Source of the DNA: Candidatus Freyarchaeum deiterrae
Lineage (GTDB): Archaea; Asgardarchaeota; Jordiarchaeia; Jordiarchaeales; Jordiarchaeaceae
Reading direction: 5' to 3'
DNA length: 64,000 nucleotides
Assembly: GCA_037305845.1 (NCBI GenBank)
Contig: CP147778.1
Location: 288,001-352,000, forward strand
Numbering within the stretch: position 1 is the first letter of the stretch; every line of letters begins with the position of its first letter. The translations under genes and the position numbers were made by a program. The notes beneath the pieces were generated by a model, which had not been told where the DNA came from, did no database searches, and was given only the letters and a program-made list of their open reading frames with translations. Positions 7,100 to 16,193 of this stretch are shown piece by piece.

Positions 7100-8560
7100 T
7101 CACTCTATAGGTGTAAATCTGGTCTGTATGTCTCTTTCTGAGATATTCAAGCCTGTTATGTACATTTTTGTTTTGGGGATCTCTCCGTAAAACACGATGC
7201 TCCCGTCTATATTTTCGAATTTGAGGTAAGATGACGCCACTTGAGTTGGCAGTCTTAAATTCTCGTGTCCGAATTGAAACATTATCATGATACCGTTTAG
7301 TTGTTTTATTCTTTCAATCCAAGTTTGAATTATTTTTGTAAGCTCCTTCGTTCCATAAATGTACGCCATTGTGTCACTTGCAATTGTAACAAAGATGGTA
7401 TCCGCTTGAACCTCGTCTAAAACTTTAACAGCCAACTCTGTTAAACTATTAAGATCTTCGATGAAATTTTCTCCCTTCAAAAAGTGTGTATCATACGTTT
7501 CAGTATTAAGTGGAGCGTTTTCTGAGGGTAAGAATACATGGAAACATTTCTTTAAATACTTAAGAGAATTATCTCCTAAAGAAGAGACTAACTTTTCACC
7601 TAAATCAGAGGAGGGTTCACTTTTTACAACATCATAGGAGAAGAGACCCTTAGAGGGAATGGTAAAGACAGGATAGCCCTGAAGGACGAAATTTAAAAAT
7701 ATGGGGCTCACAATACCAGCGTGGTCTGACCCCACCATGTTACCTATATCTAGTACGTTGAAGGATTTCCTTTCGAAGCCTCCTCCCAATATTTTGTCTA
7801 ACTCAGTTACTAAAGTGGGAATTTTTAATCCTTTCTTCTTTTCAAATTTTGGTAATTCCGCACGTACAACGTTTATTTTAATACCCTTATCAAAGGCCAT
7901 AAATCTGCCATCTTTGAGAGTAAAAAGATAAGTGGGGTATTCTATTTTTGTTCCTCTAACTTTTTCAATGTACAATTTTCTTAAAAGTCTTCCATTCACG
8001 ACCTCTTTTTCCAGCCTTATTACTCCGTCCACAAGATAGTCCAATTTACTTTCCGAAGATAATTCACTTATGAAAATTACTTTAGCATTTAATTTATTTG
8101 CGATTTCTAGGATATCACTTTCCATGCTAAAGTCATCACATGGAATTTTCAGATTTGATTTTAAGGCGTCCAAACTGTCCACAATAATGCTGGTTTTTTC
8201 TCCTTTAGAATCCATAACCCTTGAGTACAAACTTCTCAAGAAACTTGGTTTATCAACGTATTCAAAAAGTGCTTCTTGCTTAGTGTCAGAATACAAGTTG
8301 GCATTAGCGTCTAAAACGTTTTCTTGGTGAATACAAGACTTAGACCATGGAAACTGTTCGTAGAGTCTTTCGGGAGAAACCCTTGTCGACAAGTACACCG
8401 CCCTGCAATTCTCTGGAAAAAGCCTCAAAAGTTCGAGGGCCATGGTGGTTTTACCTGTACCGGCATTGCCCTTAATGTGAAGAGAGAAGGTACGAGATTC
8501 TAATGCTTGAATAATTTCCTGAGGAACATTTAGGGTTAAAATAGCTAACCGCACCCCCAT
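7100..8560 (-). CDS. RAD55/KaiC-like P-loop ATPase, GvpD-like (second ATPase domain degenerate)
   Basis: KGNAGTGKTT Walker A, IIVDS Walker B, YLVDGVIRL and IEKVRG KaiC-type motifs; second domain starts ELDKILGGG without an intact Walker A. Confidence 0.8.
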   Translation of the reverse strand: MGVRLAILTLNVPQEIIQALESRTFSLHIKGNAGTGKTTMALELLRLFPENCRAVYLSTRVSPERLYEQFPWSKSCIHQENVLDANANLYSDTKQEALFEYVDKPSFLRSLYSRVMDSKGEKTSIIVDSLDALKSNLKIPCDDFSMESDILEIANKLNAKVIFISELSSESKLDYLVDGVIRLEKEVVNGRLLRKLYIEKVRGTKIEYPTYLFTLKDGRFMAFDKGIKINVVRAELPKFEKKKGLKIPTLVTELDKILGGGFERKSFNVLDIGNMVGSDHAGIVSPIFLNFVLQGYPVFTIPSKGLFSYDVVKSEPSSDLGEKLVSSLGDNSLKYLKKCFHVFLPSENAPLNTETYDTHFLKGENFIEDLNSLTELAVKVLDEVQADTIFVTIASDTMAYIYGTKELTKIIQTWIERIKQLNGIMIMFQFGHENLRLPTQVASSYLKFENIDGSIVFYGEIPKTKMYITGLNISERDIQTRFTPIE

Positions 8561-8849
8561 AAATTGGTTTTTAAATCACATTTTTTGAGGTTTTAAGAAT
8601 GTAGTTTATAGATTTGTAAGTTATCATACCATAATGTTTCTTTTTTTTGTGAAATCGACAAAGTTATTTGAGAATATCAAAAAAGCAAAACTACATTTCT
8701 AAGAAATTACTTAGAATTCATTCTTATATTTCTATCTCCCTCTATTTCCTCTGGAAAAATGCTGTAAGGTGTAAAATCTATTTAAACAACCCTTTAGGGT
8801 AAAAAATCAATAATCAAAATGGCTATCTGACAAAGCATTGAGACGTCTA

Positions 8850-11656: not shown

Positions 11657-12994
11657 GTGGTGTTAGAAATGGTTGAAGTGACTTTTTATGGTGGGGTTGG
11701 AGAGGTCGGTGGAAACATGTTCCTTCTGCGTGACGGGGATACCAGGGTTTTTCTGGACTTCGGTATGAACTACGCCTCAAGGAGAAACTTTTACACCTGG
11801 CCTGCTCTACAACCGAGAGACGAGAGAGGATTGCTGAATTTCGGACTCATACCCAACCTAACTGGAATATACAAATATGATGAAAAGTCTGAGCCGAGTA
11901 TTGATGCTGTTTTCCTCACCCATGCTCACGGGGATCACACCGGCTATGTCCCATTAATTAAAAGAGAGATTCCTATTTACTGCGGCGAGACCACCAGCCT
12001 CATGATGAAGACACTCGCCGCCACCGGTAGAAGTAAAAACTTTGAGAAGGACTTGACCGGAATAGAGTGGAAAACATTTAGGACCGGAGATCACCCAAAA
12101 GTCGGAGACATAGAAATTGTTCCGATACATGTAGACCATTCTGTTCCCGGAGCGTATGGTTTCATAATTCACACCTCTGAGGGAACCTTAGTTTACACTG
12201 GAGATTTAAGGACACACGGAACAAAACCCGAGTTAACTGAGGATTTTGTGAAAAAGGCGGCAGAGGAGAAGCCCGAAACTGTTATTTGTGAGGGCACAAA
12301 CATTATGCAGGCGAGGGTCTCAAGTGAAAGTAATGTGGAGTTGGAGCTTAACACAGTAGCAGCCAGTACCCCGAATATCATGTTAACCAGCTTCGGTCAC
12401 AACGACATTGACAGGCTTAGAACATTCTACAACGTAGCCCAAAAGAATGACCGGTACCTTGTTATTTCCTTGAAGCAGGCCTACCTGCTAAGAGAACTCC
12501 AAAAAGATCAAAAACTAGACGTCCCAGATGTAACTGGAAACAGGTTCATAATCTTAGACGAGGAGAATACAAGAAACAAGTGGGAGAGGGATGAAATTCA
12601 GAAATATAACAACACTAAAACCGTTGCGGAGATTGCGAAAATTCAGAACAAATTGATTTACGTCCTATCTCAGTTCGACTTAAACGACCTAGTAGACATT
12701 AAACCCGAGGCTGGCGGCGTATACGTCTACTCATCCTCAGAACCCTTCACGGAGGAAGGAGAAATAGACTTTGAGCGGCTGAAAAACTGGCTAGCCAGCT
12801 ATGGACTGCCACTCTACCAGATACACGTCTCAGGTCACATAATGCCCCATGAACTCAGAGAAATATTAAAAGAAATCCAACCAAAAAAACTAGTACCGGT
12901 GCACACCGAATATCCTGAAACATTCAAGAAATACTTTGAAAAAACAATCGAGATAAAACTGCCCACAAAAAACCAACAAATGAAAATTTTCTAA
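11657..12994 (+). CDS. Metallo-beta-lactamase/beta-CASP ribonuclease (RNase J-like)
   Basis: GGVGEVGGN, THAHGDH, VDHS, YTGD, HVSGH, PVH motifs. Confidence 0.88.
   Translation: MVLEMVEVTFYGGVGEVGGNMFLLRDGDTRVFLDFGMNYASRRNFYTWPALQPRDERGLLNFGLIPNLTGIYKYDEKSEPSIDAVFLTHAHGDHTGYVPLIKREIPIYCGETTSLMMKTLAATGRSKNFEKDLTGIEWKTFRTGDHPKVGDIEIVPIHVDHSVPGAYGFIIHTSEGTLVYTGDLRTHGTKPELTEDFVKKAAEEKPETVICEGTNIMQARVSSESNVELELNTVAASTPNIMLTSFGHNDIDRLRTFYNVAQKNDRYLVISLKQAYLLRELQKDQKLDVPDVTGNRFIILDEENTRNKWERDEIQKYNNTKTVAEIAKIQNKLIYVLSQFDLNDLVDIKPEAGGVYVYSSSEPFTEEGEIDFERLKNWLASYGLPLYQIHVSGHIMPHELREILKEIQPKKLVPVHTEYPETFKKYFEKTIEIKLPTKNQQMKIF
12907..12987 (+). repeat. 81-bp direct repeat, copy 1 (3' end of RNase J-like gene)
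   Basis: cgaatatcctgaaacattcaagaaatactttg...caaatgaaaat recurs at 14111..14191 with 2 mismatches. Confidence 0.95.
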
Positions 12995-13115
12995 AAATAA
13001 TTTGAATCGCTCTTTAGAGAAAAACAAGATGTAAATCTGTGAATGCTTGTTACGCTCGATTCTATTTAATACTGAACGTAGGTTTTAGCTAAGGTGGATA
13101 AAATTGGTAAGAAAA

Positions 13116-13562
13116 ATGAAAGTGTATCTGGACACATCGGTGATTTCTGCATTGTTTGATGATAGGAACCCAGAGAGGAAATCACTCACAGAGTCTTATA
13201 TTATGCAAGTTGAAACTTTTGAAGTGTATATTTCAGAGATTACAGTTGCCTAAATTAATAGAACTCTGGACTCGGAACTTCGGAACAAAATGAGAAAAAA
13301 GGTATCGCAGTTTTCAGTGCTTTCTCTAACCGATGATGTGAAGTGGTTAGCAGAGCAGTATATTCGCTATGGTGCAATTCCCGAGAGTTATCAAGAAGAT
13401 GCGTATCACATTGCTGTCGCTGTTATAAATGAGATGGACTTCCTTTTAAGTTGGAATTTCAAGCATATCGTAAGGATAAAAACAAGGGATATAGTGAGGA
13501 TGGTAAACACTTTAAATAATCTAAGACAAATAGTAATCATAACGCCAGCGGAATTGTTATAG
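13116..13562 (+). pseudogene. PIN-domain (VapC-like) protein interrupted by in-frame TAA at 13251-13253
   Basis: MKVYLDTSVISALFD...YISEITVA*INR... in frame with 13290..13562 (EDAYHIAVA, LLSWNFKHIV); the stop falls where the conserved acidic residue (Glu) is expected. Confidence 0.85.
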
Positions 13563-13573
13563 GATGCGAAATA

Positions 13574-13750
13574 ATGAGCAAAATCAGTGAGAAAGATATT
13601 GAAAAAATAAAAAGAGTGGTTGAAAAGGAGTTCCCAAATGATCCAGCTTTACAACAAGTTCACATTGCAAGAAAAATTATAGCCAAAGAGGCGGAACTCG
13701 AAGGGTTAAGTTTTCTTGAATATGTCAAATTGTTAGGAAAGCAAATTTAG
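13574..13750 (+). CDS. 58-aa protein, putative antitoxin partner of the PIN gene
   Basis: MSKISEKDIEKIKRVVEKEFPNDPALQQVHIARKIIAKEAELEGLSFLEYVKLLGKQI*; 11 nt downstream of the PIN stop; below the ORF-track cutoff. Confidence 0.7.
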   Translation: MSKISEKDIEKIKRVVEKEFPNDPALQQVHIARKIIAKEAELEGLSFLEYVKLLGKQI

Positions 13751-13873
13751 AGTTTCTAACAATTATTTGACTATAATACACGATGCTTTTTAATTCTACA
13801 CCAGTTCCATATGTACTAGATTCGCGCCATAGGATAAGTGGTGTCTCACAAACTAACAGAACTCTTCAAATAA

Positions 13874-14081
13874 CTGACATACTCTCCACCTTGAAAGGTT
13901 GGGGGTTCTACACTTCTACTGTTAGAAGTGTGGGGCGTGTGCCACCGCCCGGTTAACGACTTCCGCACCTCTTTCGGGTGAGCAAGCCTTATTATTTTCT
14001 TTCCTCTTTTTCCGGTATTTAAACTCCCGCAATTCATCCTCGCCCTAAAGGGACCGAGGCTTTCTTGCTAATCATCTTTCT
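13874..14081 (-). mobile_element. Non-autonomous IS200/IS605-family element (PATE-like) with a retained right-end RNA scaffold
   Basis: Minus strand: TTAC target, then AAAG at the foot of hairpin CCTCGGTCCCTTTAGGGCGAGG followed by ATGAATTGC (left end); right end GAACCCCCAACCTTTCAAGGTGGAGAGTATGTCAG; no transposase or TnpB ORF. Confidence 0.8.
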
Positions 14082-14110
14082 GTAAGCCAAAAAATAATTC
14101 TCATAAGCAT

Positions 14111-14191
14111 CGAATATCCTGAAACATTCAAGAAATACTTTGAAAAAACAATCGAGATAATACTGCCAACAAAAAACCAACAAATGAAAAT
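14111..14191 (+). repeat. 81-bp direct repeat, copy 2 (orphan RNase J 3' end, reads EYPETFKKYFEKTIEIILPTKNQQMKILD*)
   Basis: 79/81 identical to 12907..12987. Confidence 0.95.
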
Positions 14192-14283
14192 CCTAGATTA
14201 AGAAGTTGTTAAATAAAATATAAAAAAAGGAAAGGTTAGAGCTCTAGCTCTTAATAATAGTTTAGCAGAAATTGTTAAGCGGC

Positions 14284-14532
14284 TTAGCAGGAACTGTGCT
14301 GAATAGCTCCCTCTGGGCAACCCTCAACGCATGCGCAGCATTCAGTGCAGTCTTCGACTCGCGGAGCTGTAGATTTGCCCTCAACTAACTCGTAGACATC
14401 AACGGGGCACACGTCAACGCAGTTAGCGTCTCCGGTGCACTTGTCCAAGTCGATTTTTATCACAATGCTTCCAGATTTGTATTCCTTTATATTTCCCTTT
14501 GCTGCGGGAGCTTTTGCTGGTTTTTTAGCCAT
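14284..14532 (-). CDS. 4Fe-4S dicluster ferredoxin with Lys/Ala/Pro N-terminal tail
   Basis: CTGDANCVDVCP and CTECCACVEGCP. Confidence 0.9.
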   Translation of the reverse strand: MAKKPAKAPAAKGNIKEYKSGSIVIKIDLDKCTGDANCVDVCPVDVYELVEGKSTAPRVEDCTECCACVEGCPEGAIQHSSC

Positions 14533-14788
14533 TTCTGTTACCTCGCGACTTTTTTATTACCAATTATCTAAATCAGACAATTTTACATGGGATATATACT
14601 TTTTGGTTTATAAATTTTAATGGTCACCTAGCCATAAAACATTTAGATACGCCGTTCCACTAAATCTTAGTGGGGCATTTTGCAGAAAACTGGAAAACGT
14701 TTAAATCCAGCTGATTTAAGTAATATTCAAGCCACGCATTTCTGGTATATATAATACCAATAAATATTGTAAAGGAGGAGGCAAATTT

Positions 14789-15175
14789 ATGTCTAGCACA
14801 TCTGAAAAGAACAAGAAAATTGTTAGCGATTTTTATAATATGGCTTTAAATCAAAAAAAGCCAGAAGAGGCGGTATCAAAATACATGGGCAAGGTATATC
14901 GCCAGCACAACCCGAATGCAGGCGATGGTCCTGAAGCATTCATTAATTTTGTCAAAGGTTTCGTGAAGCAGTATCCAGAGCTGCATTTTGATTTCAAAAG
15001 GCTCATTGCTGAGGGTGACCTAGTTGTCGTTCATTCCCATTTGAAGGTGAACCCGGCGGATCGCGGTACTGCGGTTATGGACATATTCCGCGTAGACAAG
15101 GGAAAGGTTGTCGAACACTGGGACGTTTTGCAGCCGATACCTGAAAAGTCTGCTAACAAGAACACAATGTTCTAA
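14789..15175 (+). CDS. SnoaL-like/NTF2 family protein
   Basis: YRQHNP, IAEGDLVVVH, DIFRV..GKVVEHWD; strong SD. Confidence 0.88.
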   Translation: MSSTSEKNKKIVSDFYNMALNQKKPEEAVSKYMGKVYRQHNPNAGDGPEAFINFVKGFVKQYPELHFDFKRLIAEGDLVVVHSHLKVNPADRGTAVMDIFRVDKGKVVEHWDVLQPIPEKSANKNTMF

Positions 15176-15254
15176 TGTGAACCTCGTCTACCTGCACGGA
15201 CGCGGTAAGTAAGAGTATTTTTAAGGAGAATAATGATGTGGAGGAGGATAGTTT

Positions 15255-16193
15255 ATGAAAGCAGTACAAATTAAAGAATACGGGCATATCGATGTAATTG
15301 AGATAAAAGAGGTAGATAAGCCGCGTCCTGCTAAAGATCAGGTGCAAATTGAGGTACATGCGTCAAGCATCAATCCCGTTGACTGGAAGATCAGGGAAGG
15401 TCACTTGGTTCAGATGTTCCCTGCGCAGCTACCGATAACTCTTGGTCGCGATTTAGCTGGCGTGATAACAGAATTAGGTAAGGAGGTAACCAACACAAGA
15501 GTTGGAGACAAAGTGTACGGCCAAGCCGGCGTATGGGGAGGAGGAAGCGGCGCACTCGCCGAATACGCTACGACACCGGCTGGAACGGTAGCAAAAATGC
15601 CTAAAAACCTTAGCTTTACTGAAGCAGCGGCTATAGTACTTGTAGGCGTAAGCGCTGTGCAAACACTCATTGAAGACATGAAGCTGAAGCGTAAGCAAAA
15701 GATTCTCATTCACGGTGGTGCCGGGGGCATTGGCACAATCGCGATTCAGATCGCAAAGAACATCGGCGCATACGTGACCACAACAGCAACCGGCAATGGC
15801 ATCGAGTACGTGAAGCAACTTGGAGCTGACGAAGTGATTGACTATAAAACCCAAGCATTCGACGAGAAGGTGTCAGGCTATGACGCTGTTTATGATACAG
15901 TAGGAGGCGAAACCTACACTAGATCTTTCAAGGTGCTAAAAAAGGGCGGCATCATTGTTTCAATGCTTGAACCACCAAACGCCAATCTCATGAAGCAATA
16001 CGGTGTTACTGCAATATTGCGGATGACACAAATAACTACCAAACGGCTTGATGTACTGAGGAAGTTTGTCGAGGATGGAGTCGTAAAGGTGCATATTGAG
16101 AAGACATATCCACTAAGCCAAATCAAAGAAGCGTTCAAGGCAAAAGAAACCGGAGATGTACTCGGCAAGATTGCCATTGAAATAAAGAAGTAA
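15255..16193 (+). CDS. NADPH-dependent MDR (quinone oxidoreductase-like) oxidoreductase, copy 1
   Basis: SINPVDWK, LIHGGAGGIG, LGADEVIDY; no Zn ligands. Confidence 0.9.
   Translation: MKAVQIKEYGHIDVIEIKEVDKPRPAKDQVQIEVHASSINPVDWKIREGHLVQMFPAQLPITLGRDLAGVITELGKEVTNTRVGDKVYGQAGVWGGGSGALAEYATTPAGTVAKMPKNLSFTEAAAIVLVGVSAVQTLIEDMKLKRKQKILIHGGAGGIGTIAIQIAKNIGAYVTTTATGNGIEYVKQLGADEVIDYKTQAFDEKVSGYDAVYDTVGGETYTRSFKVLKKGGIIVSMLEPPNANLMKQYGVTAILRMTQITTKRLDVLRKFVEDGVVKVHIEKTYPLSQIKEAFKAKETGDVLGKIAIEIKK

Follow-up and report, generated by a model that had tools for sequence, protein, structure and literature searches.

The 64-kb window, by which we mean the whole stretch of DNA that was analysed, contains a short protein-less element on its minus strand, the parts of which are listed in Table 1. 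The element is located in a 3′-3′ intergenic gap, between small unannotated open reading frames on the plus strand and a 4Fe-4S ferredoxin gene on the minus strand (14532-14284), and the neighbouring genes code for a metallo-beta-lactamase/RMMBL protein, a SnoaL-like protein and a zinc alcohol dehydrogenase. On the minus strand, TTAC lies immediately before the element, which terminates with TATGTCAG at 13874. Every motif that a preliminary description of this DNA had placed on the minus strand, from TTAC through to the flank, was located at its coordinates. Beside the element, an 84-bp repeat (14108-14191, plus strand) is a 96% copy of 12904-12987, which belongs to the 3′ end of the coding sequence of the 445-aa metallo-beta-lactamase/RMMBL gene (11657-12994). 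Congeners have similar pieces, and the repeat probably remains from the duplication of a gene tail. It ends 26 nt short of the TTAC and is not a paralogous empty site.

Table 1. Coordinates of the element and its parts, in the order in which they are read on the minus strand.
Feature	Position	Strand	Evidence
TTAC target tetranucleotide (C_L), expected TnpB TAM, outside the element	14085-14082	-	conserved 5′ of all copies
Whole protein-less IS200/IS605-family mini-element (PATE), 208 bp	14081-13874	-	sibling alignment and parents
AAAG (G_L), 5′ foot of left hairpin	14063-14060	-	identity 0.94; parents; minis of relatives
Left-end subterminal hairpin, CCTCG..CGAGG with inner CCC/GGG, presumed TnpA binding site	14059-14038	-	copy alignment, fold
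TATA-like box TTTAAATA, presumed tnpB promoter from the parent left end	14023-14016	-	both parents, copies
Omega-RNA scaffold module, four hairpins and tail, 122 nt, from tnpB codons ~369-stop and the right end	13995-13874	-	covariance model R1, 132.5 bits
Stem 1 (GGCUUGCUCACC...GGUGCGGAAGUC; CACCC..GGTG), loop length variable	13988-13958	-	9/9 pairs changed on both sides (45 sequences)
Stem 2 (GGGCG..CGCCC); loop UGGCA at 13944-13940	13950-13933	-	stem covariation
Stem 3, 9-bp ACACTTCTA/TAGAAGTGT, arms ACACUUCUA/UAGAAGUGU	13931-13910	-	8/8 pairs changed on both sides
GAAC (G_R), 5′ foot of right hairpin	13908-13905	-	invariant among minis
Right-end subterminal hairpin, CCCC AA CCTT..AAGG U GGAG; presumed TnpA binding site and RNA stem 4	13904-13884	-	consensus fold, covariation
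TCAG (C_R), terminal bases of the element (ATGTCAG ends at 13874)	13877-13874	-	copy alignment, G_R/C_R covariation
Flank that would serve as ~16-nt guide	13873-13858	-	differs in every copy

In total, 17 matches to the element were identified in the closed 3.58-Mb genome, and about 10 of these are full-length siblings with 78-90% identity. In 12 copies that were aligned together with their 40-nt flanks, the homology runs from just after TTAC to just after TGTCAG, with a mean pairwise identity of 0.7-1.0 inside the element as compared to 0.18-0.26 in the flanks. TTAC itself is constant, and the sequence 5′ of it is unrelated between copies. Contigs from public metagenomes cover the element at a depth of 10-15x and break at 13873/13874 and at 14073-14086. 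Terminal inverted repeats are absent; the element has an imperfect subterminal hairpin near each end, the right one of which contains a single C-A mismatch in this copy. The copies were inserted 3′ of TTAC and no target duplication was observed. The sibling copies, the limits of homology at TTAC and TGTCAG and the unrelated flanks identify the element as a discrete unit, as had been proposed.

A few of the other copies are grouped. Three minis are located within 2.8 kb at C1:274872-277680, about 10-13 kb before the window, two of which share the left flank and not the right flank. Another two, at C1:3054053 and 3055572, have both flanks in common and a degenerate right end that lacks TGTCAG. 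These clustered or flank-sharing minis look like local duplications of insertion-bearing DNA. In addition, a weak match (38 bits) to the RNA model described below is found at C1:283077-283228 on the minus strand, 4.8 kb before the window, and probably represents a copy that is degenerate or more distantly related.

We compared the ends of the element to those of IS608 from Helicobacter pylori, in which C_L is TTAC, G_L is AAAG, C_R is TCAA and G_R is GAAT, with the guides at the 5′ feet of the hairpins, the right cleavage 10 nt past the hairpin foot and a left spacing of 19 nt (PMC3201880). The left pair, TTAC/AAAG, is identical to that of IS608, the guide has the same position and the right cleavage point is likewise 10 nt 3′ of the foot of the right hairpin. 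AAAG is also present at the hairpin foot in both parents (see below) and in the minis of relatives, with a mean pairwise identity of 0.94 among nine minis. Unlike in IS608, the right pair of the mini is GAAC/TCAG, which is one compensated base away from GAAT/TCAA, and both states occur within the clade. The distance from the foot of the left hairpin to the cleavage point also differs from that in IS608, with 22 nt in the mini and 18 nt in the parents. Among 43 distinct sequences of the RNA module described below, GAAC was combined with (T/C)CAG 21 times and GAAT with TCAA 19 times; one sequence is a clear exception, and one row was misaligned. The covariation between GAAC/TCAG and GAAT/TCAA fits the IS608 guide-cleavage pairing at the DNA level. 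The preliminary description had read TTAC and AAAG by the logic of IS608; the same pair occupies the same position here, and the right pair covaries across lineages.

The origin of the element could be traced to two sites in the genome, at which its left part (query positions 5-85) and its right part (107-208) are located 1.4 kb apart. Each of these 1.4-kb parents encloses an intact open reading frame of about 410 aa in the order left end, tnpB, right end, and the two encoded proteins are 94% identical and contain the Pfam domains Cas12f1-like_TNB and OrfB_IS605. The mini consists of the left end of the parent, to about 15 nt past TTTAAATA, joined to tnpB from codon ~369 onward. It thereby retains the last ~33 codons of tnpB (~100 nt) and the right end, with the relic tnpB stop codon TAG (13910-13908) inside GAAGTGTAG. 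A single deletion junction is common to all minis of this genome and to two minis in a congener (G002), which therefore all derive from one deletion, followed by amplification. The loss of coding genes that had been proposed for this element was borne out as a core deletion, with parents that carry the same ends.

The best relatives of the parental TnpB proteins are from Ca. Jordarchaeum madagascariense (72%) and Wukongarchaeum (63%), and congener G002 includes J. madagascariense contig sequence, which places the host in the Asgard genus of Ca. Jordarchaeum. The DNA analysed here occurs in freshwater-sediment and wetland metagenomes. The genome contains at least five further TnpB genes, which are only ~26-30% identical to the parents.

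The nuclease residues of TnpB were assigned by alignment to Cas12f structures and 21 homologs. The canonical position of the RuvC-II Glu is occupied by the Gly of CGDL (xGDL), which is invariant in the 21 homologs, and an invariant Glu is found in the motif xE(R/x)xTS, which directly precedes the zinc ribbon (21 homologs; L040-L083 alignment). This TnpB clade therefore has a rearranged RuvC-II active site with a relocated Glu, a type that has already been catalogued and of which some branches are nearly exclusive to archaea. The TnpB protein of parent B (C1:2435100-2436356) has the RuvC-I Asp, the relocated Glu and the RuvC-III Asp. Parent A (C1:3247916-3249142 on the minus strand, corresponding to L011:1535-2764) encodes AYVNLG as compared to AYVDLG in parent B and 19 homologs. 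This is an Asp-to-Asn substitution in RuvC-I of an element that is intact in all other respects, including its ends, and it is not a clade trait because it was found in one gene of 21 homologs.

We also searched for empty sites. A 216-bp mini (L079) in congener G002 is inserted exactly 3′ of TTAC, and its two flanks abut in this genome near C1:2445761. At the junction, AAAACTTAC and AGAACC in G002 correspond to AAAACTTAT and AGACCC here, and the joined flanks align continuously across it, so that the joint is seamless when compared to the empty site. This exact empty site confirms the ends, and the comparison of the two genomes shows that the family has moved, or was precisely excised, within the genus. 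The preliminary description had suggested looking in relatives for an empty site of the element itself. For the copy at 13874-14081, no empty allele was recovered among the congeners, in which its flanks are not conserved. Likewise, no joint across 13873/14082 was present in metagenome contigs, which drop rare variants. An exact scan of metagenome contigs matched neither the predicted joint of TTAC with TTATTTGAAG nor, as a control, the right flank alone; this blank is uninformative because the control also lacked a match, and the locus is not in that collection.

A match to the Y1 TnpA family (PF01797) was not obtained in the closed genome. Y1 TnpA is present in three congeners (G001, G003 and G005), and in a fourth (G004) it is a pseudogene that adjoins a match to the module. 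In a further relative (G032:C44:8252-9876; L083, L110), a Y1 tnpA gene (8252-8602) is followed by a 439-aa open frame, measured from stop to stop and corresponding to tnpB, and by a module ending in TCAA, which together make up a complete, autonomous-looking element. With no TnpA in the closed genome, neither excision nor homing can occur there now. Considering also the 10-22% divergence of the copies, the family is stranded here. The absence of TnpA bears on the current mobility of the PATE and not on its identity.

The right-end part of the element folds into a structure that is conserved far beyond this genome. A consensus fold derived from 11 copies contains four hairpins, the first three of them in a GC-richer tract, with indels only in the apical loops, and a covariance model (R1; 132 positions) was built from the copies. 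The model identified the module at the 3′ end of TnpB genes at 28 loci in Asgard archaea, Bathyarchaeia, Methanomethylicales, Thermoplasmata and others; it matched in 11 of 41 related genomes, and once in the window. Among 45 aligned hits, in an alignment that was fitted to the model, 94.8% of the cells assigned to stems were paired, as compared to 46-53% when the partners were slid. In the same fitted alignment, compensatory changes were observed in 28 of 31 pairs, and none of 500 shuffles attained the observed values. The fold of the single sequence is only modestly better than that of shuffled sequences (z = -2.07), and the structure rests on the comparative evidence. Of the ten full-length copies, the one at 13874-14081 scores lowest with the model, and it carries 2 additional nucleotides in the loop of stem 2. 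A scan of positions 12500-15500 against Rfam at E ≤ 1 gave no family, e.g., neither HgcC (RF00062) nor the IS605-orfB motifs. The tract that had been described as a TnpB RNA scaffold from its appearance in one sequence is a covarying module at TnpB 3′ ends across archaea.

We searched for further pairings in and around the module. No further conserved local helix was found in the 130 nt that precede stem 1 in full-length elements, and the mini therefore appears to keep the whole scaffold. Two candidates were rejected: a 4-bp GAYG/UGUC pairing upstream of stem 1, which is explained by the codon for the catalytic Asp and shows no covariation, and a closing helix of the 5′ lead with the tail (ACAU/AUGU), which was no better than in shuffled sequences. 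The loop of stem 2, UGRCA (UGGCA in this copy), is complementary to UGUCA in the tail (13879-13875; positions -6 to -2) in 97.6% of cases, as compared to 1-44% when slid. Both segments are nearly invariant, with no covariation between them, and they may form a guide-adjacent pseudoknot.

Protein-less minis are also found in relatives. Two congeners have mini families of their own, G005 (L085, L094 and L100; ~14 model hits) and G004 (L101 and L106; ~12 model hits), which have other left ends and deletion junctions and GAAT/TCAA ends, and in which the whole module is kept. The mini type in G005 retains more of the 3′ end of tnpB. A mini of about 165 bp in another genome (G018; L087:1501-1660 on the minus strand) has the same left hairpin with AAAG at its foot and a right hairpin ending with TATATCAG, and lacks stems 1-3. 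This is a PATE without a guide-RNA scaffold; retention of the scaffold is not obligatory, because stems 1-3 are absent from this mini.

The most conserved 8-mer among the minis is TTTAAATA, with an identity of 0.97. It is present at the same position of the left end in both parents, and after the deletion its 3′ end is located 27 nt upstream of stem 1. It fits the generic archaeal TATA consensus. Given its spacing to stem 1, transcription beginning about 24 nt beyond the box would start at ~13992, where the module has its 5′ edge. Throughout the genome, TTTAAATA was found upstream of open reading frame starts 79 times, as compared to 63 times for the reversed control, which is a weak enrichment. 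The box is a putative promoter.

The identity among minis varies between the parts of the module, with 0.94-0.98 in the arms of stem 1 as compared to 0.73 in its loop. The arms of stems 1 and 3 taken together have identities of 0.92-0.98, as compared to 0.70-0.83 in the TnpA hairpins and 0.79 in the spacer. The conservation of the stem arms, together with the presence of the module in the independent mini families of G004 and G005, argues for constraint on the RNA. These patterns bear on the alternative that the element is an inert relic, that is, a TnpA substrate that included the scaffold by the chance placement of the deletion endpoint, with no RNA made or used and with conservation due to descent. 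Such a relic would be consistent with the origin of all minis here from one deletion event, with the present lack of TnpA, with the scaffold-less mini in G018 and with the weak genome-wide enrichment of the TATA-like box. It is at odds with the higher conservation of this box and of the stem 1 and stem 3 arms than of TnpA hairpins, spacer and loops, with the whole module being kept in two independent mini families, and with the confinement of indels to the loops. We regard this alternative as doubtful, although it deserves serious weight.

The loop indels among copies have lengths of 2, 3, 6, 7, 8, 10 and 11 nt, and since several of these are not multiples of three there is no conserved open reading frame in the minis. 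A mechanical listing of open reading frames includes a 63-aa frame (14037-13846, minus strand) and a 57-aa frame (13783-13956, plus strand), and either could in principle represent a small protein gene. However, the loop indels break any frame among the copies and both frames extend into the non-homologous flank, and we consider such a gene almost certainly excluded.

The module could also be another kind of non-coding RNA or a DNA decoy. A PATE in Halobacterium salinarum is expressed as RNA and competition for TnpA has been speculated upon (Gomes-Filho 2015, PMC4615843), and the right-end hairpin does belong to the RNA in our model. Stems 1-3, however, covary with the TnpB clade and are unneeded by TnpA, the layout matches that of a TnpB scaffold and there is no TnpA here to titrate, which makes this alternative very improbable.

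The right flank of the element (13873-13854) is TTATTTGAAGAGTTCTGTTA. The preliminary description had taken all of these 20 nt as the guide; the flank does differ in each copy, as a guide would, but the predicted guide length is ~16 nt, which extends to 13858. For each copy, the only perfect match of the 16-nt flank in the genome is the flank itself, and the tetranucleotide before it is TCAG rather than TTAC. In a genome-wide search for retargeting of the guides, matches with up to 4 mismatches were noise, and those with up to 2 mismatches were at chance level and preceded by TTAC no more often than expected. The guides appear to be ordinary flanks, as expected for homing, with no sign of retargeting. 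In the absence of TnpA from the genome, the guide is therefore without a present-day target.

These results also bear on the possibility that the minis have been exapted, with their RNAs and a nuclease-dead TnpB from parent A acting elsewhere as TldR-like regulators or defence guides. The RuvC-I substitution in parent A, and a dozen putative promoter-bearing cassettes in a genome without TnpA, would be in line with such a function. Each guide, however, has its own flank as the only perfect match and consists of whatever DNA adjoins the insertion, the matches with 2 mismatches are at chance level, the substitution was seen in one gene of 21 homologs, and the ends of parent A are intact. We therefore consider an exapted function extremely improbable. 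A related and very improbable idea, which we mention as speculation, is that the dozen TATA-equipped cassettes, together with one active and one RuvC-I-mutant TnpB, might still serve as a trans-acting guide set after the loss of TnpA. If so, this set might, for instance, cut incoming or recombining DNA with empty alleles, as a population-level drive or exclusion, or might be an early stage of TnpB domestication.

Taken together, the best explanation, which we hold to be very probable, is that the element is a PATE, non-autonomous and derived from an IS605/IS608-type transposon, that contains an omega-RNA scaffold. The comparisons with siblings, parents and relatives show its identity, ends and parentage, the conserved RNA structure and the mobility of the family. 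One internal deletion in a tnpB-only parent removed nearly all of tnpB and joined the left end, with the TnpA hairpin, AAAG and the TATA-like box, to the right end and the ~100 nt of tnpB that precede it. The mini then spread through the genome by Y1 TnpA acting in trans, with insertion 3′ of TTAC and without target duplication. The later steps, from promoter activity and transcription to the use of the RNA by TnpB in homing, are inferred. The TATA box from the left end, ~24-27 nt upstream of the scaffold, may direct an RNA that starts at ~13992 and runs through the four hairpins into the flank, the first ~16 nt of which would be the guide. Together with TnpB from either full-length sibling, this RNA would cut the vacated site after excision (TTAC and flank, here TTAC and TTATTTGAAGAGTTCT), and recombination at the cut site would restore the element. 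Today, the cassette is best regarded as a relic that is stranded but well preserved.

The findings leave the current understanding of these systems unchanged. What they add is a dissected omega-RNA PATE from an Asgard archaeon, with parents, junction, exact ends, an empty site in relation to a congener and a covariance model that applies across phyla. With its 132 positions, the model serves as a marker for the scaffold in a clade of archaeal TnpB proteins whose RuvC-II site is rearranged, and the covariation of GAAC/TCAG with GAAT/TCAA extends the guide-cleavage rule of IS608 to archaea. A deletion that places a TATA box before a scaffold would be a simple route from a transposon to a stand-alone guide-RNA gene.

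PATEs were defined in Haloquadratum walsbyi as core-deleted IS605-type elements (Dyall-Smith 2011, PMC3119063), and Halobacterium salinarum expresses an RNA, VNG_R0052, that derives from a PATE (Gomes-Filho 2015, PMC4615843). Like the PATEs of Haloquadratum, the element described here lacks inverted terminal repeats, has subterminal hairpins, causes no duplication, is too short for a transposase and is a fusion of left and right ends (PMC3119063). Unlike these, it resides in an Asgard host (Jordarchaeia), its parent, single deletion junction and full covarying scaffold are defined, and its RNA is a predicted one.

It has been reported that PATEs often encode omega RNAs that need TnpB from other elements in trans (Meers 2023). 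Omega-RNA PATEs served in trans by TnpB are thus already published, and our element is a clean example rather than a new system. Similar to those PATEs, it is protein-less, has transposon ends and a predicted omega RNA that would need TnpB in trans, with the right flank as guide and the joint of TAM and donor as target. It differs from them in the archaeal host, in the rearranged RuvC-II site of TnpB, in the lack of TnpA in the genome and in the proposed promoter, an archaeal TATA box set beside the scaffold by the deletion.

We also compared the scaffold to the omega RNA of ISDra2 (Nakagawa 2023, PMC10097598). There is no sequence similarity between the two, the expected TAM is TTAC as compared to TTGAT in ISDra2, and the pseudoknot that is present in ISDra2 is a candidate in our scaffold. 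In both elements, the scaffold shares sequence with the part of tnpB that encodes the poorly conserved C-terminus. The two scaffolds are 122 nt and 116 nt long, respectively, and both have four stems and a loop that is complementary to the nucleotides 5′ of the guide.
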